DNA from: Lentisphaerota bacterium
GTDB taxonomy: Bacteria > Verrucomicrobiota > Kiritimatiellia > UBA8416 > VGWI01
Assembly: GCA_016873655.1 (NCBI GenBank)
Contig: VGWI01000001.1
Location: 71,983 to 135,982, forward strand
DNA length: 64,000 bases
Direction: 5' to 3'
In this document: positions 2,936-53,816 of the stretch, one piece after another
Position numbering within the stretch: the stretch's first letter is position 1
Layout of the letters: every line of letters starts with the position of its first letter
The notes under the pieces: generated by a model
Seen by the model: only the letters and a program-made list of their open reading frames with translations
Databases searched by the model: none
What the model was told of the DNA's origin: nothing
Position numbers and translations under genes: made by a program

Positions 2936-3373
2936 ATGATGGCGGTTTCGGCAAAGCAGTGCCGGGTTGTGCGGTGCGCCGTGGGCCGGCTTGAGCACGG
3001 GTCGGACCTGCTCGCCTCGCTTACCGATCTGTGCGTGAAAGAGGGTGTGCGCGCCGGACGGGTGACCGCGATCGGGGCTGTAAGCAGGGCGCGGCTGGCG
3101 ATGTATGACCAGGCCGGCAGACAGTACGTCTACACCGATTACGCGAGTCCGGCCGAGATACTTTCGCTCGCGGGCAACGTCTCGCTGAAGGAAGGGCGGC
3201 CCATGGTGCATTCCCACGTGACGCTGGCCGGCGCCGACGGCAGGGCGTTCGGCGGGCACCTTGCCGAGGGGACGGTCGTTTTTGCGTGTGAGTATGTTCT
3301 TGAGGTGTTTGGCGGCCCGGACTTCGAACGCGAGCATGACGATGTAACCGGCTTGCACCTGTGGAAGGAATGA
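2936..3373 (+). CDS. PPC (DUF296) domain protein, putative DNA-binding
   Basis: HSHVTLAGADGRAFGGHL and GRLEHGSDLLASL motifs are typical of the PPC/DUF296 fold. ATG at 2936 follows AAAGGGGAG. Confidence 0.6.
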   Translation: MMAVSAKQCRVVRCAVGRLEHGSDLLASLTDLCVKEGVRAGRVTAIGAVSRARLAMYDQAGRQYVYTDYASPAEILSLAGNVSLKEGRPMVHSHVTLAGADGRAFGGHLAEGTVVFACEYVLEVFGGPDFEREHDDVTGLHLWKE

Positions 3374-19780: not shown

Positions 19781-20665
19781 TCAGAACGTTCTGGCGGGTG
19801 ATGCCAGCGTGACATACAGGCGCCAGAGCACCGGTCCCCAAAGCATCCACAGGAGGGCGCCGAGCGAGAGGTAGGGGCCGAACGGGATCCTGCTCTGCAT
19901 CTGCCTGCGGCCTGTCATTACGAGTGTGAGCCCCACCAGCGACCCGATCAGTGACGATGCGAGGATGGTGAAGAAGACGGCGCGGGACCCAAGGAATGCG
20001 CCGATTGCCCCCATCAGTTTGACGTCCCCGAAGCCCATGGCTTCCTTCTTGAACAGCCATTCGCCGACTGTTGCCGTGGCCCAGAGGAGTCCCCATCCCA
20101 GCGCGGCGCCCAGCGAAGACCACAGGAGGGCGCGCATGACCTCCGTCTCGCCGTGGAGCGACGGGACAAGCGCGCTCAGCGAGAGGCCGGCGACTATGCC
20201 GCCGAGCGTTACCCTGTCCGGGATGATGAAGTGTTCGAAGTCCACGAAGGTGCCCAGCACGAGACCCGAGACGGCCAGCCACAGGACAGGTACGAGCCTC
20301 CAGTCCGACATGGGCGCGAGGCCGAACATGCGCGGGCTACTGCAAAGGTCATACTTCAGCCAGACGAGGAGGAAGAGAATCCCGACCAGCAATTCCACGC
20401 CCACGTAGCGAGGCGAGATGCGGGTTCCGCAGAACCGGCACCGGCCCCGGAGCATGAGCCAGGAAAGAATCGGTACGTTCAGGTATGCCGGTATCTGCCG
20501 CCGGCAGGAAGGGCAGAACGATCTTGGCGACACGACGGACAGGTCAAGGGGAATGCGGTAGATGCAGACGTTGAGGAAGCTGCCCATGCAGGTTCCCCAC
20601 ACGAAAGACAAGGCTGCGAAAAAGCCGCGCCAGGGAAAATCCGCCAAGCCCGCCGTGCCGCTCAT
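19781..20665 (-). CDS. pilD: prepilin peptidase (A24 family; leader peptidase / N-methyltransferase)
   Basis: N-terminal Zn-binding CPSC...CRFC tetrad, multiple TM helices, and the catalytic Asp motifs IIPD and FGDVKLMGAIGAFLG. ATG overlaps the aroE stop (ATGA). Confidence 0.85.
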   Translation of the reverse strand: MSGTAGLADFPWRGFFAALSFVWGTCMGSFLNVCIYRIPLDLSVVSPRSFCPSCRRQIPAYLNVPILSWLMLRGRCRFCGTRISPRYVGVELLVGILFLLVWLKYDLCSSPRMFGLAPMSDWRLVPVLWLAVSGLVLGTFVDFEHFIIPDRVTLGGIVAGLSLSALVPSLHGETEVMRALLWSSLGAALGWGLLWATATVGEWLFKKEAMGFGDVKLMGAIGAFLGSRAVFFTILASSLIGSLVGLTLVMTGRRQMQSRIPFGPYLSLGALLWMLWGPVLWRLYVTLASPARTF

Positions 20666-21543
20666 GGTTTATCTCCGTAGACGGCCTGTTCCAGCGCCGC
20701 GCGCATCGCCTCCACGGCGGCCGGCCTGCCGGTCCAGATGGTGAAAGCCCGCGCGCCCTGGTGAAGCAGCATGCCGAGACCGTTTGCGCAGGCCGCGCCG
20801 GCTGCTTCCGCTTCGATCATGATACCCGTGCGCGGGTACATGTAGACGAGGTCGAACAGCAACTGCCCCTTGCCGAACGCGTTGCGGTCCATGAGGGGAG
20901 CGTCCGACTGTTTCATTCCGCAGGGGGTGGCCTGTATCACGACATCGCATGCCGCTGCCGCGTCGCGCCAGGTCTCCGGCCCGGCTCGAACCGCTGAGGA
21001 CTCCGTGCCGTGTTTGGCGGAGATCTCCTTCGCGAGTGACGCGGCCCTTGGCGAATCCACGTCAGTCACCAGGATTTTCCGTGCGCCGGCGTCCGCGCAG
21101 GCGATGGCGACGGCCCTGCCGGCGCCGCCGCTGCCGAGTATGAAGACGCTCTTGCCGGACGGGGTTGTGTTGAACGCTTCCCTGAAAGCGGCGAGGAATC
21201 CGGCGCCGTCGGTGTTATGGCCGCGCATGCCGCCGCCGGGGAACTCGACTGTGTTGACCGCGCCAAGCGTGCGAGCCGACTCGTCAAGGTCCGCGATGCC
21301 GCGAAAGGCAACCTCCTTGAGCGGCACGGTAAGGTTGACGCCGGCGAACCCCATTTCCCGCATGGCGGGCAGAACCGTCATCAACCGATCGGGGTGGACA
21401 TCGAAAGGCAGGTAGATTGCGTCCATCCCGAGTGACCGGAACGCCGCATTGTGCATTACCGGCGACAATGAGTGGCTGATGGGATGCCCGAGCACTGCGA
21501 ACGGTCTGGTCTTTCCGCTTAGCTGCGGCAAGGCGTTTTCCAC
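20662..21543 (-). CDS. aroE: shikimate dehydrogenase
   Basis: GHPISHSLSP substrate-binding motif, NLTVPLK, and GSGGAGRAV NADP-binding motif. GTG start preceded by GGAGG. Confidence 0.85.
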   Translation of the reverse strand: MENALPQLSGKTRPFAVLGHPISHSLSPVMHNAAFRSLGMDAIYLPFDVHPDRLMTVLPAMREMGFAGVNLTVPLKEVAFRGIADLDESARTLGAVNTVEFPGGGMRGHNTDGAGFLAAFREAFNTTPSGKSVFILGSGGAGRAVAIACADAGARKILVTDVDSPRAASLAKEISAKHGTESSAVRAGPETWRDAAAACDVVIQATPCGMKQSDAPLMDRNAFGKGQLLFDLVYMYPRTGIMIEAEAAGAACANGLGMLLHQGARAFTIWTGRPAAVEAMRAALEQAVYGDKP

Positions 21544-23117: not shown

Positions 23118-23602
23118 GGTTTCACCTGCTCGCCCCGTGCGACGGCTATGACGCCGCTGCGGGACACGTCGAGGACCTTGAAAGGCTTCAGCATTTCGAT
23201 CAGGTCATTGACCTTTTCCTTTTCGCCGACCATCTGGATCGTGAGCGAGCCTGACTGGACGGACACGACTTTGGCCTCGAACAGGTCCGCCAGTCCGACG
23301 ATTTCCGCACGGCTTTTCGCCGGCGCGGCCACCTCTATGAGCGCCAGTTCCCTGTTGAGGTAGCGGCGCTGCGTGAGGTCGGTCACCTTCACCACGTCCA
23401 CCAGCTTGTTGAGCTGTTTCATCACCTGCTCCAGCACTCGGTCATCCCCCGGGACGGTCATGGTCATCCGTGAGAGGCCGGCGTCCTGGGTCGGGGCCAC
23501 GTTGAGGCTTTCTATGTTGAAACCTCTTCCGGAGATAAGGCCGACGATGCGGGCCAGGACTCCGGGCTGGTTTTCGACCAAAGCTGAAATAACGTGTTTC
23601 AT
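23114..23602 (-). CDS. ilvH: acetolactate synthase small (regulatory) subunit, ACT domain
   Basis: MKHVISALVENQPGVLARIVGLISGRGFNIESL is the classic IlvH/IlvN ACT-domain N-terminus. Start refined to the ATG at 23602 after GGAG. Confidence 0.85.
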   Translation of the reverse strand: MKHVISALVENQPGVLARIVGLISGRGFNIESLNVAPTQDAGLSRMTMTVPGDDRVLEQVMKQLNKLVDVVKVTDLTQRRYLNRELALIEVAAPAKSRAEIVGLADLFEAKVVSVQSGSLTIQMVGEKEKVNDLIEMLKPFKVLDVSRSGVIAVARGEQVKP

Positions 23603-23652
23603 CTGGTTTCTCCGGTTCTCCAACTTCTCAACCTGTCATTTCCTGCAGGGCT

Positions 23653-25374
23653 TCACGCCATACTGTGAACCATTTCAATCAGCGAGGCGCCCGGCGGCAC
23701 CATCGGGTAAACGTTGGCATTCTCGCTCACCACGCAGTCGAGCACGACCGGTCTGGGCGTGCTGAACGCCTTTTTCAGGGCAGATTTCACTTCCGACTGC
23801 CTGGTCACGCGCATGCCGACGGCCCCGTGCGCTTCCGCCAGCTTCACGAAGTCCGGGAGGTATTGCCCGGGCTTCCTGTCCGGGATGTTTTCCACCCGGT
23901 TCCGGCCAGTGGTTTTCAGCACCGACGCCGAATACTCGCCCTTGTAGAACATCTCCTGCCACTGGCGGACCATGCCGAGGTGTCCGTTGTTCAGGATCAC
24001 GACCTTGATCGGCAGGTCATGCTCCACCGCCACGACCAGTTCCTGGAAGTTCATCTGCGTGCTGCCGTCTCCCCCTATGTCGACGACAAGCGCGTCGCGT
24101 TTGCCGAATTGCGCGCCGATCGCCGCCGGCAGCCCGTACCCCATTGTGCCCAGGCCGCCCGAGCTCAGGAACGTGCGCGGCTTCGTGTACTTGAAGAAGT
24201 GCGCCGCCCACATTTGGTGCTGGCCGACCTCGGTTGTGATGATCGCCTTTCCGCGTGTCAGTTCGTACACCTGTTCGATGACGTACTGCGGAAGCAGTTG
24301 CGATGACTTGGTGTCGTAGGAGAAGGGGAACTCCTTCATCCATGCGTTCACCGACGCGAGCCATTCCCTGTGTCCGCCCTTGTCCACGAGCGGCAGCAGC
24401 TTCTGCAGGACGGGCTTGGCGTGACCGACGACCGGGATATCAACGGTCACGCTCTTGTCTATCGAGGAAGGGTCGATATCAATGTGCGCCTTCTTCGCCG
24501 CTGTGGCGAACTCGGATATTTTTCCTGTGACGCGGTCGTCGAACCTGGCCCCCACCGATATCAGCAGGTCGCATTCGCTCACAGCCCTGTTGGCTGCGAC
24601 GCTGCCGTGCATTCCCAGCATGCGCAGTGAGAGCGGGTCGGTCTCGGGGAACGCTCCGAGCCCCATCAGCGTCGTCGTGACAGGTATTCTGGCCTTTCTG
24701 GCAAGGGCTGTAAGCTCCCTTGATGCGTCGCCTGCTATGACGCCGCCGCCCACGTAGAGAAGGGGGCGCGCAGCCTTGTTGATCGCCTCCGCAAGCCGCG
24801 CGATCTGCTTGGAGTTCCCCTCGAAGGCCGGCCTGTAGCCGCGGAAGGACAATTCCTTCGGCGTGGTCTTGTCCGTCGAGGCCCGCTGCACGTCCTTCGG
24901 GACGTCGATCAGTACAGGGCCAGGCTTGCCCGAACGAGCCACGTAGAAAGCTTCCGCGATGGTGCGCGGGAGGTCGTCCACGTTGCGGACGAGGTAGTTG
25001 TGCTTGGTGACGGCCCTGGTGATGCCGGTTGTATCGGCCTCCTGGAACGCATCGTTGCCGATCATGGAAGACGGCACCTGGCCTGATATGCACACCATCG
25101 GTATGCCGTCCATGGCGGCCGTCGCGAGGCCGGTGACAGTATTGGTGGCGCCGGGGCCGGAGGTGACGAGGCAGCATCCGACCTTGCCGGTTGCCCGCGC
25201 GTAGCCGTCCGCCATGTGGGCGGCGCCCTGCTCATGGCGCACCAGCACGAACTCGAGCGACGAATGGTACAGCTCGCTGAAGATGTCCAGCACTGATCCG
25301 CCGGGTAGTCCGAATATGGTCTTCACGCCCTGTCTCTTCAGGCCGTCTATTATGCACTGGGCTCCGGTCTTCAT
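23653..25374 (-). CDS. ilvB: acetolactate synthase large (catalytic) subunit, ThDP-dependent
   Basis: Three ThDP-enzyme domains, including GDGS...NNGHLGMV (ThDP/Mg-binding) and the N-terminal GLPGGSVLDIFSEL. Start refined to the ATG at 25374 (MKTGAQ) after GGAGACGAAA. Confidence 0.9.
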   Translation of the reverse strand: MKTGAQCIIDGLKRQGVKTIFGLPGGSVLDIFSELYHSSLEFVLVRHEQGAAHMADGYARATGKVGCCLVTSGPGATNTVTGLATAAMDGIPMVCISGQVPSSMIGNDAFQEADTTGITRAVTKHNYLVRNVDDLPRTIAEAFYVARSGKPGPVLIDVPKDVQRASTDKTTPKELSFRGYRPAFEGNSKQIARLAEAINKAARPLLYVGGGVIAGDASRELTALARKARIPVTTTLMGLGAFPETDPLSLRMLGMHGSVAANRAVSECDLLISVGARFDDRVTGKISEFATAAKKAHIDIDPSSIDKSVTVDIPVVGHAKPVLQKLLPLVDKGGHREWLASVNAWMKEFPFSYDTKSSQLLPQYVIEQVYELTRGKAIITTEVGQHQMWAAHFFKYTKPRTFLSSGGLGTMGYGLPAAIGAQFGKRDALVVDIGGDGSTQMNFQELVVAVEHDLPIKVVILNNGHLGMVRQWQEMFYKGEYSASVLKTTGRNRVENIPDRKPGQYLPDFVKLAEAHGAVGMRVTRQSEVKSALKKAFSTPRPVVLDCVVSENANVYPMVPPGASLIEMVHSMA

Positions 25375-25418
25375 TTTCGTCTCCGCTCGTGTTCTCTTTC
25401 TCATGGCGCCGTGCTTTG

Positions 25419-25455
25419 TCCAGAAAGCAAAAACCCACCGCGAAGTCACGGTGGG
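25419..25455 (-). terminator. intrinsic terminator (attenuator) in the ilvB 5' leader
   Basis: On the minus strand: CCCACCG-ugacuucg-CGGUGGG stem-loop followed by UUUUUGCUUUCUGG, ending about 45 nt upstream of the ilvB ATG. Confidence 0.55.
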
Positions 25456-25487
25456 TCCTTAAGGACATTGGAGAGGGCGGCGCGCTC

Positions 25488-25586
25488 TTACCTTCTCTCC
25501 ACCGTGACGCGCACCGCACCTACGAGGCGCAGTACGAGCCCCGCTCCTACACCTGCAAGCGTCACGGATGGAGTTGTCCTGTCCAT
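25488..25586 (-). CDS. candidate ilv leader peptide (32 aa, Val/Leu-rich)
   Basis: Minus-strand small ORF ATG...TAA encoding MDRTTPSVTLAGVGAGLVLRLVGAVRVTVERR, with 7 Val, 4 Leu and 0 Ile. Its 3' codons (GUC ACG GUG GAG) are exactly complementary to the 5' arm of the downstream terminator. Confidence 0.45.
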   Translation of the reverse strand: MDRTTPSVTLAGVGAGLVLRLVGAVRVTVERR

Positions 25587-25741
25587 AGCAGCGTGGAGAG
25601 TAGCACCTGCCGCGGGTGGCAGTCAACGCGGAAAACGGCACTGAAATAGCGAGTTTTCGCGTTCCTTGACACGGGGTGGGGGTTGTGTGATTAATCGCCG
25701 GAGTTATCCGGCTCGGTTGCCGGTTCCCGGGGGATGATCTC

Positions 25742-26956
25742 ATGCGCATCAAGCCGTTTACGGCGCTCTGTCCGCCGGTCGAGGTGGCTGCCAGTGTTTC
25801 GGCTCCGCCATACGACACGATTGAGGAAGACCAGGCGCGCGCGGTGGTGTCCGCGAATCCCCGGAGTTTTCTCCGCATCTCCAGGCCTGAAGCGGACATG
25901 GAAGGGAAGGCGGATCCGCACGGCCCGGAGGCATATGCCAGGGCTGCCTCGAACTTCGCCGAGTTCCGGGCCACGCGTCTTCTGGTGCGAGAGGCGAACC
26001 CCGGTATGTTTCTATACAGGCTTTCAAAGGATGGGCACTCGCAGACGGGGGTCGTTGCGTGCTGTCATACCGCCGACTACGGCAGCGGAGTGATAAAGAG
26101 GCATGAGAAGACCCGGATTGAGAAGGAGAATGACAGGGCCGCGATGATCCGCGCCTTGAGGGGCAATACCGAGCCCGTACTGCTCGCATACCGGGACAGG
26201 CCGGGAATAGACGCCTGTGTTTCCGGGATTGCCGCCGGGGCGCCGAGATACGACTTCACGGCGGCGGACGGAGTGCGGCACACGCTCTGGGCGGTGGCGG
26301 GCGGCGCGGGGCTTGACGCGATGTTCGCGAAGGTTCCGGGCGCGTACATAGCCGACGGGCACCACCGGGCGGCGGCCGCGGCCCGTGTCGCCGCCGGAGA
26401 GCAGGTCGGGGGCGGCTCAGGCGAATGCGGTGACCGTGAGTGGTTCCTTGGGGTGCTTTTCCCCGCATCCCAGCTCAACGTGATGCCCTACAACCGGTGT
26501 TTGAGCGACTTGAACGGGCTGAGCGAGAAGGAATTCGCCGAAGCGGCTGCGCGTGCTTTCAAGCTTGAGCCGTGTGACGGACCGAGCCCGGTCTGTGCGC
26601 GCGACATTCGCATGTATATGGGCGGACGCTGGCACAGGCTCACGTGGAACGGGGAGCCTGGCGGAGATCCGGTGGCGTCGCTGGACGTCAGCGTTCTCCA
26701 GGACCGCTTGCTGGGGCCGGCGATAGGCGTGACGGATCCGAGAACCGACAAACGTCTCATATACGTCGGAGGCATACACGGGACCGCGGAGCTGGTGAGG
26801 CTGGTTGACTGTGGAAGGGCCAGGGCGGCTTTTTCGATGTTCCCGACTTCGGTCGAGCAGGTGATGGCCGTCTCGGACAGCGGGCGCATGATGCCGCCCA
26901 AGAGCACGTGGTTTGAGCCGAAGCCGCGGTCAGGCCTGTTCGTGCAAACGTTCTGA
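25742..26956 (+). CDS. DUF1015 domain-containing protein
   Basis: Conserved DUF1015 motifs APPYD, YIADGHHR and GGIHG. 404 aa. Confidence 0.7.
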   Translation: MRIKPFTALCPPVEVAASVSAPPYDTIEEDQARAVVSANPRSFLRISRPEADMEGKADPHGPEAYARAASNFAEFRATRLLVREANPGMFLYRLSKDGHSQTGVVACCHTADYGSGVIKRHEKTRIEKENDRAAMIRALRGNTEPVLLAYRDRPGIDACVSGIAAGAPRYDFTAADGVRHTLWAVAGGAGLDAMFAKVPGAYIADGHHRAAAAARVAAGEQVGGGSGECGDREWFLGVLFPASQLNVMPYNRCLSDLNGLSEKEFAEAAARAFKLEPCDGPSPVCARDIRMYMGGRWHRLTWNGEPGGDPVASLDVSVLQDRLLGPAIGVTDPRTDKRLIYVGGIHGTAELVRLVDCGRARAAFSMFPTSVEQVMAVSDSGRMMPPKSTWFEPKPRSGLFVQTF

Positions 26957-53772: not shown

Positions 53773-53816
53773 CAGAAAAACGAAGCCCCGCTGCAAGAGC
53801 GGGGCTTCGTTTTTCG
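53773..53816. terminator. bidirectional intrinsic terminator downstream of the pilin gene
   Basis: AGAAAAAC-GAAGCCCCGC-tgcaaga-GCGGGGCTTC-GTTTTTCG: a perfect 10-bp GC-rich stem flanked by an A-run on one side and a T-run on the other. Sits 23 nt after the pilin stop. Confidence 0.75.

Follow-up and report, generated by a model that had tools for sequence, protein, structure and literature searches.

The leader region of ilvB

The stretch of Lentisphaerota DNA analysed here (64 kb, in the following called the window) encodes the large subunit of acetolactate synthase, IlvB, on its minus strand, and the region in front of this gene probably contains a transcription attenuator operated by a ribosome that translates a valine- and leucine-rich leader peptide. 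An original prediction, made from the sequence alone, had proposed such an element and had placed ilvH, leuA, aroE and a prepilin peptidase gene downstream of ilvB. The Pfam assignments agree with this order: ilvH is found at 23623-23114, leuA at 23117-21570, aroE at 21543-20662 and the A24 prepilin peptidase gene (pilD) at 20665-19781, all on the minus strand like every feature below unless otherwise stated. The stop codon of ilvH overlaps the start codon of leuA, and that of aroE the start codon of pilD. The presumed regulated gene, ilvB, also assigned by Pfam, occupies 23653..25384 including its Shine-Dalgarno sequence (GGAG, 25384-25381). It starts at an ATG at 25374 and its product has 573 amino acids, as read from the sequence and as called by the Joint Genome Institute (JGI) on identical contigs; homologue alignments back the same start.

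Upstream of ilvB lies a DUF1015 gene (25742-26956, Pfam) on the opposite strand. The gap between the two genes is 367 bp, close to the 370 bp first given for the leader, but it is a divergent promoter region of which the transcribed leader makes up only about 215 nt. Since the upstream gene is divergent, a minus-strand terminator in this gap must belong to the 5' leader of ilvB and not to the end of a preceding gene. The IlvB protein is identical to that encoded on three retrieved JGI metagenome contigs, and to a protein in NCBI from a metagenome-assembled genome (MAG) labelled 'Lentisphaerae bacterium'. The closest non-identical relatives (at most 78% identity over the full length, and at most 81% when the first 265 residues are compared) are labelled as Kiritimatiellia, Verrucomicrobia or Lentisphaerae MAGs, which bears out the earlier impression of a genome from the Planctomycetes-Verrucomicrobia-Chlamydiae (PVC) group.

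The leader contains an open reading frame (ORF) of 32 codons followed by UAA (25586->25488). Its peptide, MDRTTPSVTLAGVGAGLVLRLVGAVRVTVERR, has seven Val, four Leu and no Ile, exactly as first described. The fraction of Val, Leu and Ile is 0.34, a value reached by only two of the 145 ATG-initiated ORFs of 25-45 amino acids in the window, and among these 145 the leader ORF alone has eight such residues within a stretch of 13. Three of the seven Val codons are GUA, which accounts for 8% of the Val codons in the genes of the window and is the rarest of them there (P=0.014). Gene callers did not report the ORF on the identical public contigs.

A predicted promoter of the sigma-70 type, read from the sequence, is situated at 25597..25626. 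It consists of a -35 box TTGACT (25626-25621), a spacer of 18 nt and a TGc-extended -10 box TACTCT (25602-25597), which puts the predicted transcription start at about 25592-25589, 3-6 nt ahead of the leader AUG; the AUG itself lies 10 nt past the -10 box. It is not preceded by a Shine-Dalgarno sequence, although ilvB is. A generic promoter and terminator scan reported neither the leader promoter nor the leader terminator. The U-tract here continues the stem of the terminator and the -10 box is a weak one; both elements were found by reading the sequence and with purpose-made scans. One of three otherwise identical contigs (L163) has a C->G change at 25600, the third position of the -10 box, turning TACTCT into TAGTCT. 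This is the sole difference across the 368 nt compared upstream of the ilvB start codon.

Four RNA segments can be recognised in the leader. Segment 1 (CUCCAUCCGUGACGC, 25559..25573, codons 5-10) forms the 5' arm of a protector or anti-antiterminator helix, 1:2. Segment 2 (GCGUCACGGUGGAG, 25497..25510, codons 26-30) can pair with segment 1 or with segment 3, and two codons (6 nt) lie between its end and the UAA. Helix 1:2 joins CUCCAUCCGUGACGC (25573-25559) to GCGUCACGGUGGAG (25510-25497) by 14 bp with one bulged U, a stronger pairing than the one originally drawn. The antiterminator helix 2:3 is made up of 10 perfect base pairs between GUCACGGUGG (25508-25499) and CCACCGUGAC (25454-25445); it extends by one the exact 9-nt complement already noted between UCACGGUGG (25507-25499) and CCACCGUGA. 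The calculated duplex energies are -24.6 kcal/mol for 1:2, -19.9 kcal/mol for 2:3 and -17.5 kcal/mol for 3:4. In the window both 2:3 (p=0.01) and 1:2 (p=0.003) beat dinucleotide shuffles, and the unconstrained fold of the leader consists of 1:2 together with the terminator (z=-3.2).

The intrinsic terminator with its U-tract (25421..25455), apparent from sequence, folding and scan, is better drawn as CCCACCGUG-ACUU-CGCGGUGGG (25455-25434), with 9 bp and -16.4 kcal/mol, than with the shorter stem proposed at first. Segment 3 is CCCACCGUG(AC), 25455-25445, the loop is ACUU, segment 4 is CGCGGUGGG, 25442-25434, and the U-tract is UUUUUGCUUUCUG at 25433-25421 (U5GCUUUCU). The stem begins 32 nt past the stop codon and the U-tract 54 nt past it, which corrects the claim that the terminator itself lies fifty-five nucleotides downstream, the only statement of the original prediction on the sequence that proved inexact. 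From the U-tract to the ilvB ATG there are only about 46 nt, and these leave no space for a separate ilvB promoter. The sequence CGGTGGGTTTT occurs once in the window, at this terminator, and a strict scan for hairpins followed by U-tracts found three sites in the 64 kb, both strands included, the leader terminator being one of them.

Two further hairpins are seen in the minimum free energy (MFE) folds. An internal hairpin, GUACUGCGCCU-CGU-AGGUGCGGUGC (25511..25535), lies directly 5' of segment 2 within the Val/Leu tract, and RNAalifold predicts a hairpin at the equivalent place in seven relatives (columns 68-72 with 86-90). Judged from these models it may serve for pausing or spacing. The peptide motif LVRP that recurs before segment 2 is more likely a by-product of this conserved hairpin (GUACGGCC...) than a nascent-peptide arrest motif. 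The second hairpin, X, with the stem UGGAGAG ... CUCUCCA (25469..25501), encloses the stop codon between segment 2 and the terminator and is followed by a small palindrome, GUCCUUAAGGAC. Most MFE structures of the relatives also contain a hairpin that spans or abuts the stop codon.

Conservation of the leader in related bacteria

The comparison comprised 26 leaders: that of the window, those of 24 relatives analysed quantitatively, and one more (L172) that was read by eye. The loci came from a genome scan, a metagenome scan and nine look-ups of contigs with homologues. All 25 relatives derive from PVC or Kiritimatiellia-type MAGs and metagenomes, with IlvB identities of about 57-81% over the stretch that each scan compared.

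In every one of the 25 an ORF of 28-40 codons with a Val, Leu and Ile fraction of 0.21-0.50 is found at the same place, one of the things that the original prediction had proposed to look for. Segment 1 is found near ORF nucleotide 19, segment 2 ends 3-7 codons before the stop codon in the relatives, and in all leaders the stop codon lies 42-67 nt before the 3' arm of the terminator (segment 4). Every relative has in front of ilvB the terminator core CCCRYCG...CGGYGGG followed by a U-run, slightly altered in L007, L010, L169 and L172. The terminator is 25-87 nt away from ilvB, except in L021 and L092, where the distance is about 225 nt. The element is absent from most of the more distant ilvB loci of the same scans (for instance Sumerlaeota, L012-L020), while L021, at 57% IlvB identity, still has it.

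The helices were evaluated in a gap-free block alignment of 18 leaders anchored by rule, the anchor of segment 2 being the last G[GA]UG[GU] in the ORF. This fixed rule replaced anchors chosen with RNAduplex, which took a different partner site in L005 and L169. It also replaced a whole-leader MAFFT alignment of ten diverse relatives, in which both segments 1 and 2 were misplaced for L021 and L092 and segment 1 of the window was out of register. With the rule, the segment-1 anchor falls at ORF index 18 (0-based) in 16 of the 18 leaders, at 17 in the window and at 21 in L021, and the stop codon comes 11-23 nt past the segment-2 anchor in all 18.

All three helices show the compensatory changes that had been suggested as a check. 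For helix 1:2, 77% of the cells are paired against 37-50% in registers slid by 1-3, and 10 of the 14 pairs have compensatory changes, 30 compensatory cells altogether. Helix 2:3 has 79% paired cells against 33-50% when slid, with 15 compensatory cells, and helix 3:4 has 93% paired cells with compensatory changes in three pairs (11 cells); over the three helices the slid registers pair at 33-51%. The covariation score was reached by none of 500 column shuffles for each helix, counts that are not to be taken as probabilities, since the leaders share ancestry and the alignment hangs on their conserved cores. RNAalifold applied to an unanchored MAFFT alignment of seven closer leaders gave the long-range 1:2 helix, the inner hairpin before segment 2 and the terminator. 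The 2:3 duplex was better than shuffles (p<=0.02) in 11 of 17 leaders.

With the layout conserved in 25 relatives and base changes in the helices compensated, the attenuator is, as far as sequences can tell, very probably real. Codons for Val, Leu, Ala, Gly and Arg occur frequently wherever DNA is GC-rich, and each of the single-sequence p-values is only about 0.01, so one might ask if an ORF, a hairpin and a complementarity have simply met by chance in an intergenic region of 62% GC. The comparative data effectively refute this, given that the same architecture recurs at the same positions in diverged sequences with compensatory changes, and strict terminators are as rare in the window as described above.

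The ORF also has the character of a coding sequence. In its frame the mean Val, Leu and Ile fraction is 0.36, while the two remaining frames have 0.15 and 0.10 (17/17 leaders; Wilcoxon p=8e-6), and U(T) occupies 40% of the second codon positions compared with 13% of the first and 19% of the third. The distance between the anchors of segments 1 and 2 takes seven different values, all congruent modulo 3 in 13 of 18 leaders, which is expected of a coding spacer and not of a pure RNA spacer. When the 26 peptides are pooled and compared with the proteins of the window, Val is enriched 2.28-fold, Leu 1.66-fold and Thr 1.58-fold, while Ile (0.93-fold) and Phe (0.30-fold) are not. The bias towards Val and Leu and not Ile noted at first thus holds for the family, and its specificity favours sensing of valine and leucine over a generic membrane or hydrophobic peptide.

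The presence of the ORF in 26 of 26 loci, and a hydrophobic product of 28-40 amino acids, typical for small membrane proteins, might nevertheless be taken to mean that it encodes such a protein and has its own terminator, with ilvB expressed by constitutive, leaky read-through. The pattern of conservation makes this quite improbable. The peptide is conserved chiefly where it overlaps segments 1 and 2, and its middle part keeps the composition but is free in sequence and length. Ala, Met and Trp are, like Phe and Ile, not enriched, unlike what is seen in transmembrane helices, and the enriched amino acids exactly match the products of the downstream operon. A stand-alone gene would further have no need for the covarying 2:3 pairing, which links the overlapping coding region to the terminator, and in most relatives the short distance from terminator to ilvB would leave ilvB without a promoter of its own.

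The position of the promoter is conserved as well. A TTGAC(N) box, a spacer of 16/18 nt and a TAnnnT box whose end is 6-12 nt upstream of the start codon of the leader ORF are found in 22 of the 25 scored leaders, and L172 has, judged by eye, the same layout. Because the predicted -10 box ends this close to the start codon, the mini-gene is probably leaderless, its transcript beginning at the AUG or a few nucleotides from it. The leader ORFs of L021 and L092 start with GUG after AGGAAA, have a longer 5' untranslated region (UTR) and are not leaderless. These two loci also have a near-perfect extended -10 element between the terminator and ilvB (TGCTATAAT at about 2925-2935 in L021 and TGCTATACT at about 660-670 in L092), which suggests a second promoter that would bypass the attenuator. 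In L004 and L094 the sequence TGGCA(C/T)-N5-TTGA stands directly before the leader ATG, 3-25 nt upstream, and a TTGACG box is found 23 nt from a TATTGA hexamer. This arrangement could be an extended -10 promoter or an element similar to the -24/-12 elements of sigma-54.

Some other ilvB loci met in the scans have different leaders. Two deltaproteobacterial MAGs (L051 and L064) encode the Ile-rich leader ORFs MNTVSAAKNVTIAIIIGIIIPFHMGAG and MERVRTIVNPVQIAIISGIIIPYDIGVG (...IAIIIGIIIP...), followed by a terminator AGCCGTTACC...GGTAACGGCT-T6, about 200-60 nt upstream of ilvB (locus position 3001). By sequence, this appears to be an independent family of ilvB attenuators with Ile specificity. In L157 and L158 a uORF (upstream ORF) of 13 codons, MLIVRYAPRGGRT, is followed by AGGCCC-CTCGC-GGGCCT-T6 about 140-50 nt upstream of ilvB, and this element may be a short attenuator.

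A few observations concern the surrounding genes. Beyond its ATG the ilvB frame continues without a stop codon (25375-25449, minus strand) as far as a GTG at 25449, which lies in the stem of the terminator. This makes an ORF of 598 amino acids, and automatic annotation could thus draw ilvB too long, across the attenuator. The start of ilvH is ambiguous: the ORF list has TTG at 23623 (169 amino acids) while the JGI call on an identical contig has 162 amino acids, implying a start about 21 nt further in (window 23602-23623, minus strand). Both aroE and the A24 prepilin peptidase gene are found in the same tightly packed unit as ilvBH-leuA (19781-21543, minus strand). In the relatives L164 (2975-3122) and L165 (3022-3101) aroE follows directly after ilvH and leuA is missing, and the linkage of the acetohydroxyacid synthase (AHAS) genes with aroE under a Val/Leu attenuator looks conserved. 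Apart from the leader terminator, the 64 kb contain just one clean terminator, at 53780-53810. It is bidirectional and a perfect palindrome, ACGAAGCCCCGCT-CTTGC-AGCGGGGCTTCGT, with T-runs on both strands. Canonical terminators seem to be rare in this genome.

Ribosome position and the proposed mechanism

The effect of a ribosome on the leader RNA was calculated by moving it codon by codon along the ORF. A scan of the full-length leader at equilibrium is uninformative, since the local hairpin always wins, and the transcript was instead truncated just before segment 4 and everything up to 10 nt past the A-site codon was masked. In 24 of 25 leaders, segment 2 sequesters segment 3 (P>=0.7) as long as the A-site is in the Val/Leu tract. 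Sequestration drops sharply in most leaders once the front of the ribosome covers segment 2, in the window from 0.9 to 0.1-0.2, and with the ribosome at the stop codon it is 0.5 or lower in 16 of the 25. In the window the transition occurs between codons 24 and 25, and the codons at which a stall would be productive are therefore V8, L10, V13, L17, V18, L19, L21 and V22. According to this model the Val codons that form part of segment 2 (codons 25-29) are excluded as productive stall sites, and the productive zone would comprise codons ~8-22.

These calculations agree with a mechanism that would proceed as follows. The transcript would start a few nucleotides before the leader AUG, and the mini-gene would be read as a leaderless or nearly leaderless mRNA. 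Segment 1 (codons 5-10) would pair first with segment 2 (codons 26-30), and the first ribosome would melt this helix upon entering codon ~5. When Val-tRNA or Leu-tRNA is scarce the ribosome would stall within codons ~8-22 (…LVLRLV…) with segment 2 exposed just ahead of it, and segment 2 would then capture segment 3 as it emerges (10 bp, -19.9 kcal/mol). With 2:3 formed there would be no terminator, and RNA polymerase would read into ilvB. When the supply is good the ribosome would reach the last codons and the UAA and cover segment 2, so that 3:4 could form (9 bp and the U-tract) and transcription would end about 46 nt before ilvB. If the leader is not translated at all, 1:2 would persist and the terminator would form as well.

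Several observations weigh against this interpretation. In nearly all sequences the equilibrium fold of the full-length leader favours the terminator wherever the ribosome is placed, and the control must therefore be kinetic (co-transcriptional), as in trp. In the ribosome-free truncated transcript 2:3 (-62.9) is about as stable as 1:2 (~-61), the two being ~2 kcal/mol apart, and 'superattenuation' therefore depends on 1:2 forming first. The anti-antiterminator role of 1:2 accordingly rests on covariation and folding order and not on thermodynamics. Folding of the alternative states, which had been proposed as a check, gave the expected switch when a ribosome was included, and two nearly isoenergetic structures without it. 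The regulatory codons are interspersed and do not form one long run, and one relative, L165, has only 21% Val, Leu and Ile in its peptide. As the ORF of the window has no Shine-Dalgarno sequence, its translation would hang on the predicted leaderless start, and the promoter was recognised by its match to the consensus, the generic scan having passed over it. The alignments were anchored by hand or by rule on conserved cores, and the sequences in them are related. Finally, in the ilvB leader of Streptomyces coelicolor mutation of the candidate regulatory codons left regulation unchanged (PMC1262725).

This last result would also fit with a switch that is real but set by something other than a stalled ribosome, such as an RNA-binding protein, a small ligand or polymerase kinetics sensitive to guanosine tetraphosphate (ppGpp) or nucleoside triphosphates, the ORF being incidental or merely serving to open 1:2. 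T-boxes or ppGpp riboswitches serve ilvB in other bacteria (PMC10272879), and the unusual invariance of the segment cores (CCCAYCG/CGGUGGG in nearly all relatives) could be explained by a protein-binding site. We still regard a switch of this type as unlikely. The RNA between the segments varies in length and sequence and yet stays an open frame with a period-3 U pattern and an enrichment of Val and Leu. The start codon keeps a fixed distance to the promoter and the stop codon a fixed relation to segment 2. The open frame and the fixed geometry at both of its ends would be superfluous for a switch operated by a protein or a ligand. Furthermore, no Rfam family, T-boxes and riboswitches included, plausibly matches the leader at E<=10.

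Taken together, it is likely, with some room for doubt, that ilvB-ilvH-leuA(-aroE-pilD) is controlled by a ribosome-mediated leader-peptide attenuator that responds to charged tRNA-Val and tRNA-Leu. We infer that the ORF is translated, that stalling is the deciding event and that valine and leucine are the amino acids sensed. The ribosome-stalling geometry of the trp/ilv type that was originally suggested is supported by the comparison of sequences, with a probable leaderless start and a stall zone at codons ~8-22 as refinements. Each of the originally proposed checks that lends itself to computation spoke for it.

Relation to known attenuators

The element seems not to belong to any family described earlier. 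Rfam gave nothing at gathering score across the whole window, and at E<=10 only weak, terminator-driven matches to rnk_pseudo (24.5 bits, cut-off 55), Hrs13 and DUF1874 were obtained; T-boxes, riboswitches and the known leader families (Leu_leader, Thr_leader, His_leader, Trp_leader, Phe_leader, ykkC/ppGpp) were rejected on this basis. A blastn search with word size 11 against 5,426 complete Escherichia coli genomes gave no match to the leader, and homology to the enterobacterial ivbL and ilvL leaders was rejected as there is no nucleotide similarity. Identity with the ilvB-OMG motif was also rejected, the strings CGGUGGG and CCCACCG being absent from its published alignment, which is a coarse test on core strings. 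Full-text searches of the literature did not bring up leader-peptide attenuation for either Verrucomicrobia or Kiritimatiellota. As there is no match in Rfam, E. coli or ilvB-OMG, and these searches gave no report from this lineage, the element is a new sequence family of a familiar kind of regulator.

A family of at least 26 members with clean covariation that is absent from Rfam could be taken up in annotation pipelines. With it, leader-peptide attenuation, a mechanism known best from Proteobacteria and Actinobacteria, would reach into an uncultured and poorly studied PVC lineage. The practical value is modest and would lie in the annotation of branched-chain amino acid (BCAA) regulation in Kiritimatiellia-type MAGs and in a candidate Val/Leu-responsive part. 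There is about an even chance that no ribosome-mediated attenuator family has been described from the PVC superphylum before, and that this one works obligatorily through leaderless initiation. If so, the protector helix would be opened by the very 70S ribosome that loads first onto the emerging 5' end, and this ribosome would set the race with RNA polymerase, a scenario that builds on the AUG lying 6-12 nt from the -10 box and on segment 1 lying at ORF nucleotide 19. It would imply tight coupling of transcription and translation in a Kiritimatiellia-like lineage, and the leader would be a compact natural Val/Leu sensor with an unusually rigid geometry.

The logic of the leader is that of E. 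coli trpL, with alternative 1:2, 2:3 and 3:4 pairing, kinetic control and superattenuation. In trpL, however, a different amino acid is sensed by way of two tandem Trp codons, translation is Shine-Dalgarno dependent and the reading frame stops between segments 1 and 2. The present ORF continues through segment 2. The leaders of ilvBN (ivbL) and ilvGMEDA (ilvL) in E. coli and Salmonella are likewise four-segment attenuators at acetohydroxyacid synthase genes, in which a ribosome stalled at the regulatory codons frees segment 2 for segment 3. The ivbL peptide is also 32 amino acids long, and its leader responds to Val and Leu. The E. coli leaders have a Shine-Dalgarno sequence, a 5' UTR and long uninterrupted Val runs, while in the present family the regulatory codons are interspersed (LVLRLV) and the mRNA is probably leaderless. 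Segment 1 is here located upstream of the regulatory codons (codons 5-10) and does not overlap with them as it does in E. coli.

Attenuation of ilvB by a uORF is established in E. coli and Corynebacterium glutamicum. It has been predicted for ilvB leaders in other Actinobacteria as well (PMC1262725), and has been proposed to be common for ilvB genes, and specifically for the Corynebacterium ilvB-II, ilvB-OMG and Leptospira motifs (PMC10272879). The latter two, from the Breaker laboratory, are candidate uORF attenuators with in-frame start and stop codons and predicted peptides 'rich in BCAAs and threonine' (PMC10272879). The present peptides, enriched in Val, Leu and Thr, resemble these. The taxa and the consensus are different, and those motifs are likewise candidates.

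Another close parallel is the ilvB-II motif at ilvBNC of C. glutamicum. Its leader can form an antiantiterminator, an antiterminator and a terminator, has CUU and GUA as control codons, and its translation starts 1 nt from the start of the transcript (PMC11857589). In both cases ilvB and the gene for the small subunit are the targets, here presumed ones, the uORF is rich in codons for branched-chain amino acids and three overlapping hairpins are found, and the window leader also uses GUA (three times) and CUN codons. C. glutamicum belongs to the Actinomycetota and not to the PVC group, its uORF is usually 15-17 amino acids long compared with 28-40 here, and only in the present family does a long-range 1:2 helix enclose the whole tract of regulatory codons together with an inner hairpin. 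The corynebacterial element has been tested experimentally while the present one is known from sequence; no similarity between the two is apparent, though they were not compared directly. In C. glutamicum the start codon is found essentially at the 5' end of the transcript, as is predicted here, and the apparent leaderless start of the present family, in repeating the Corynebacterium design, supports the idea of a repeated origin of leaderless uORF attenuators.

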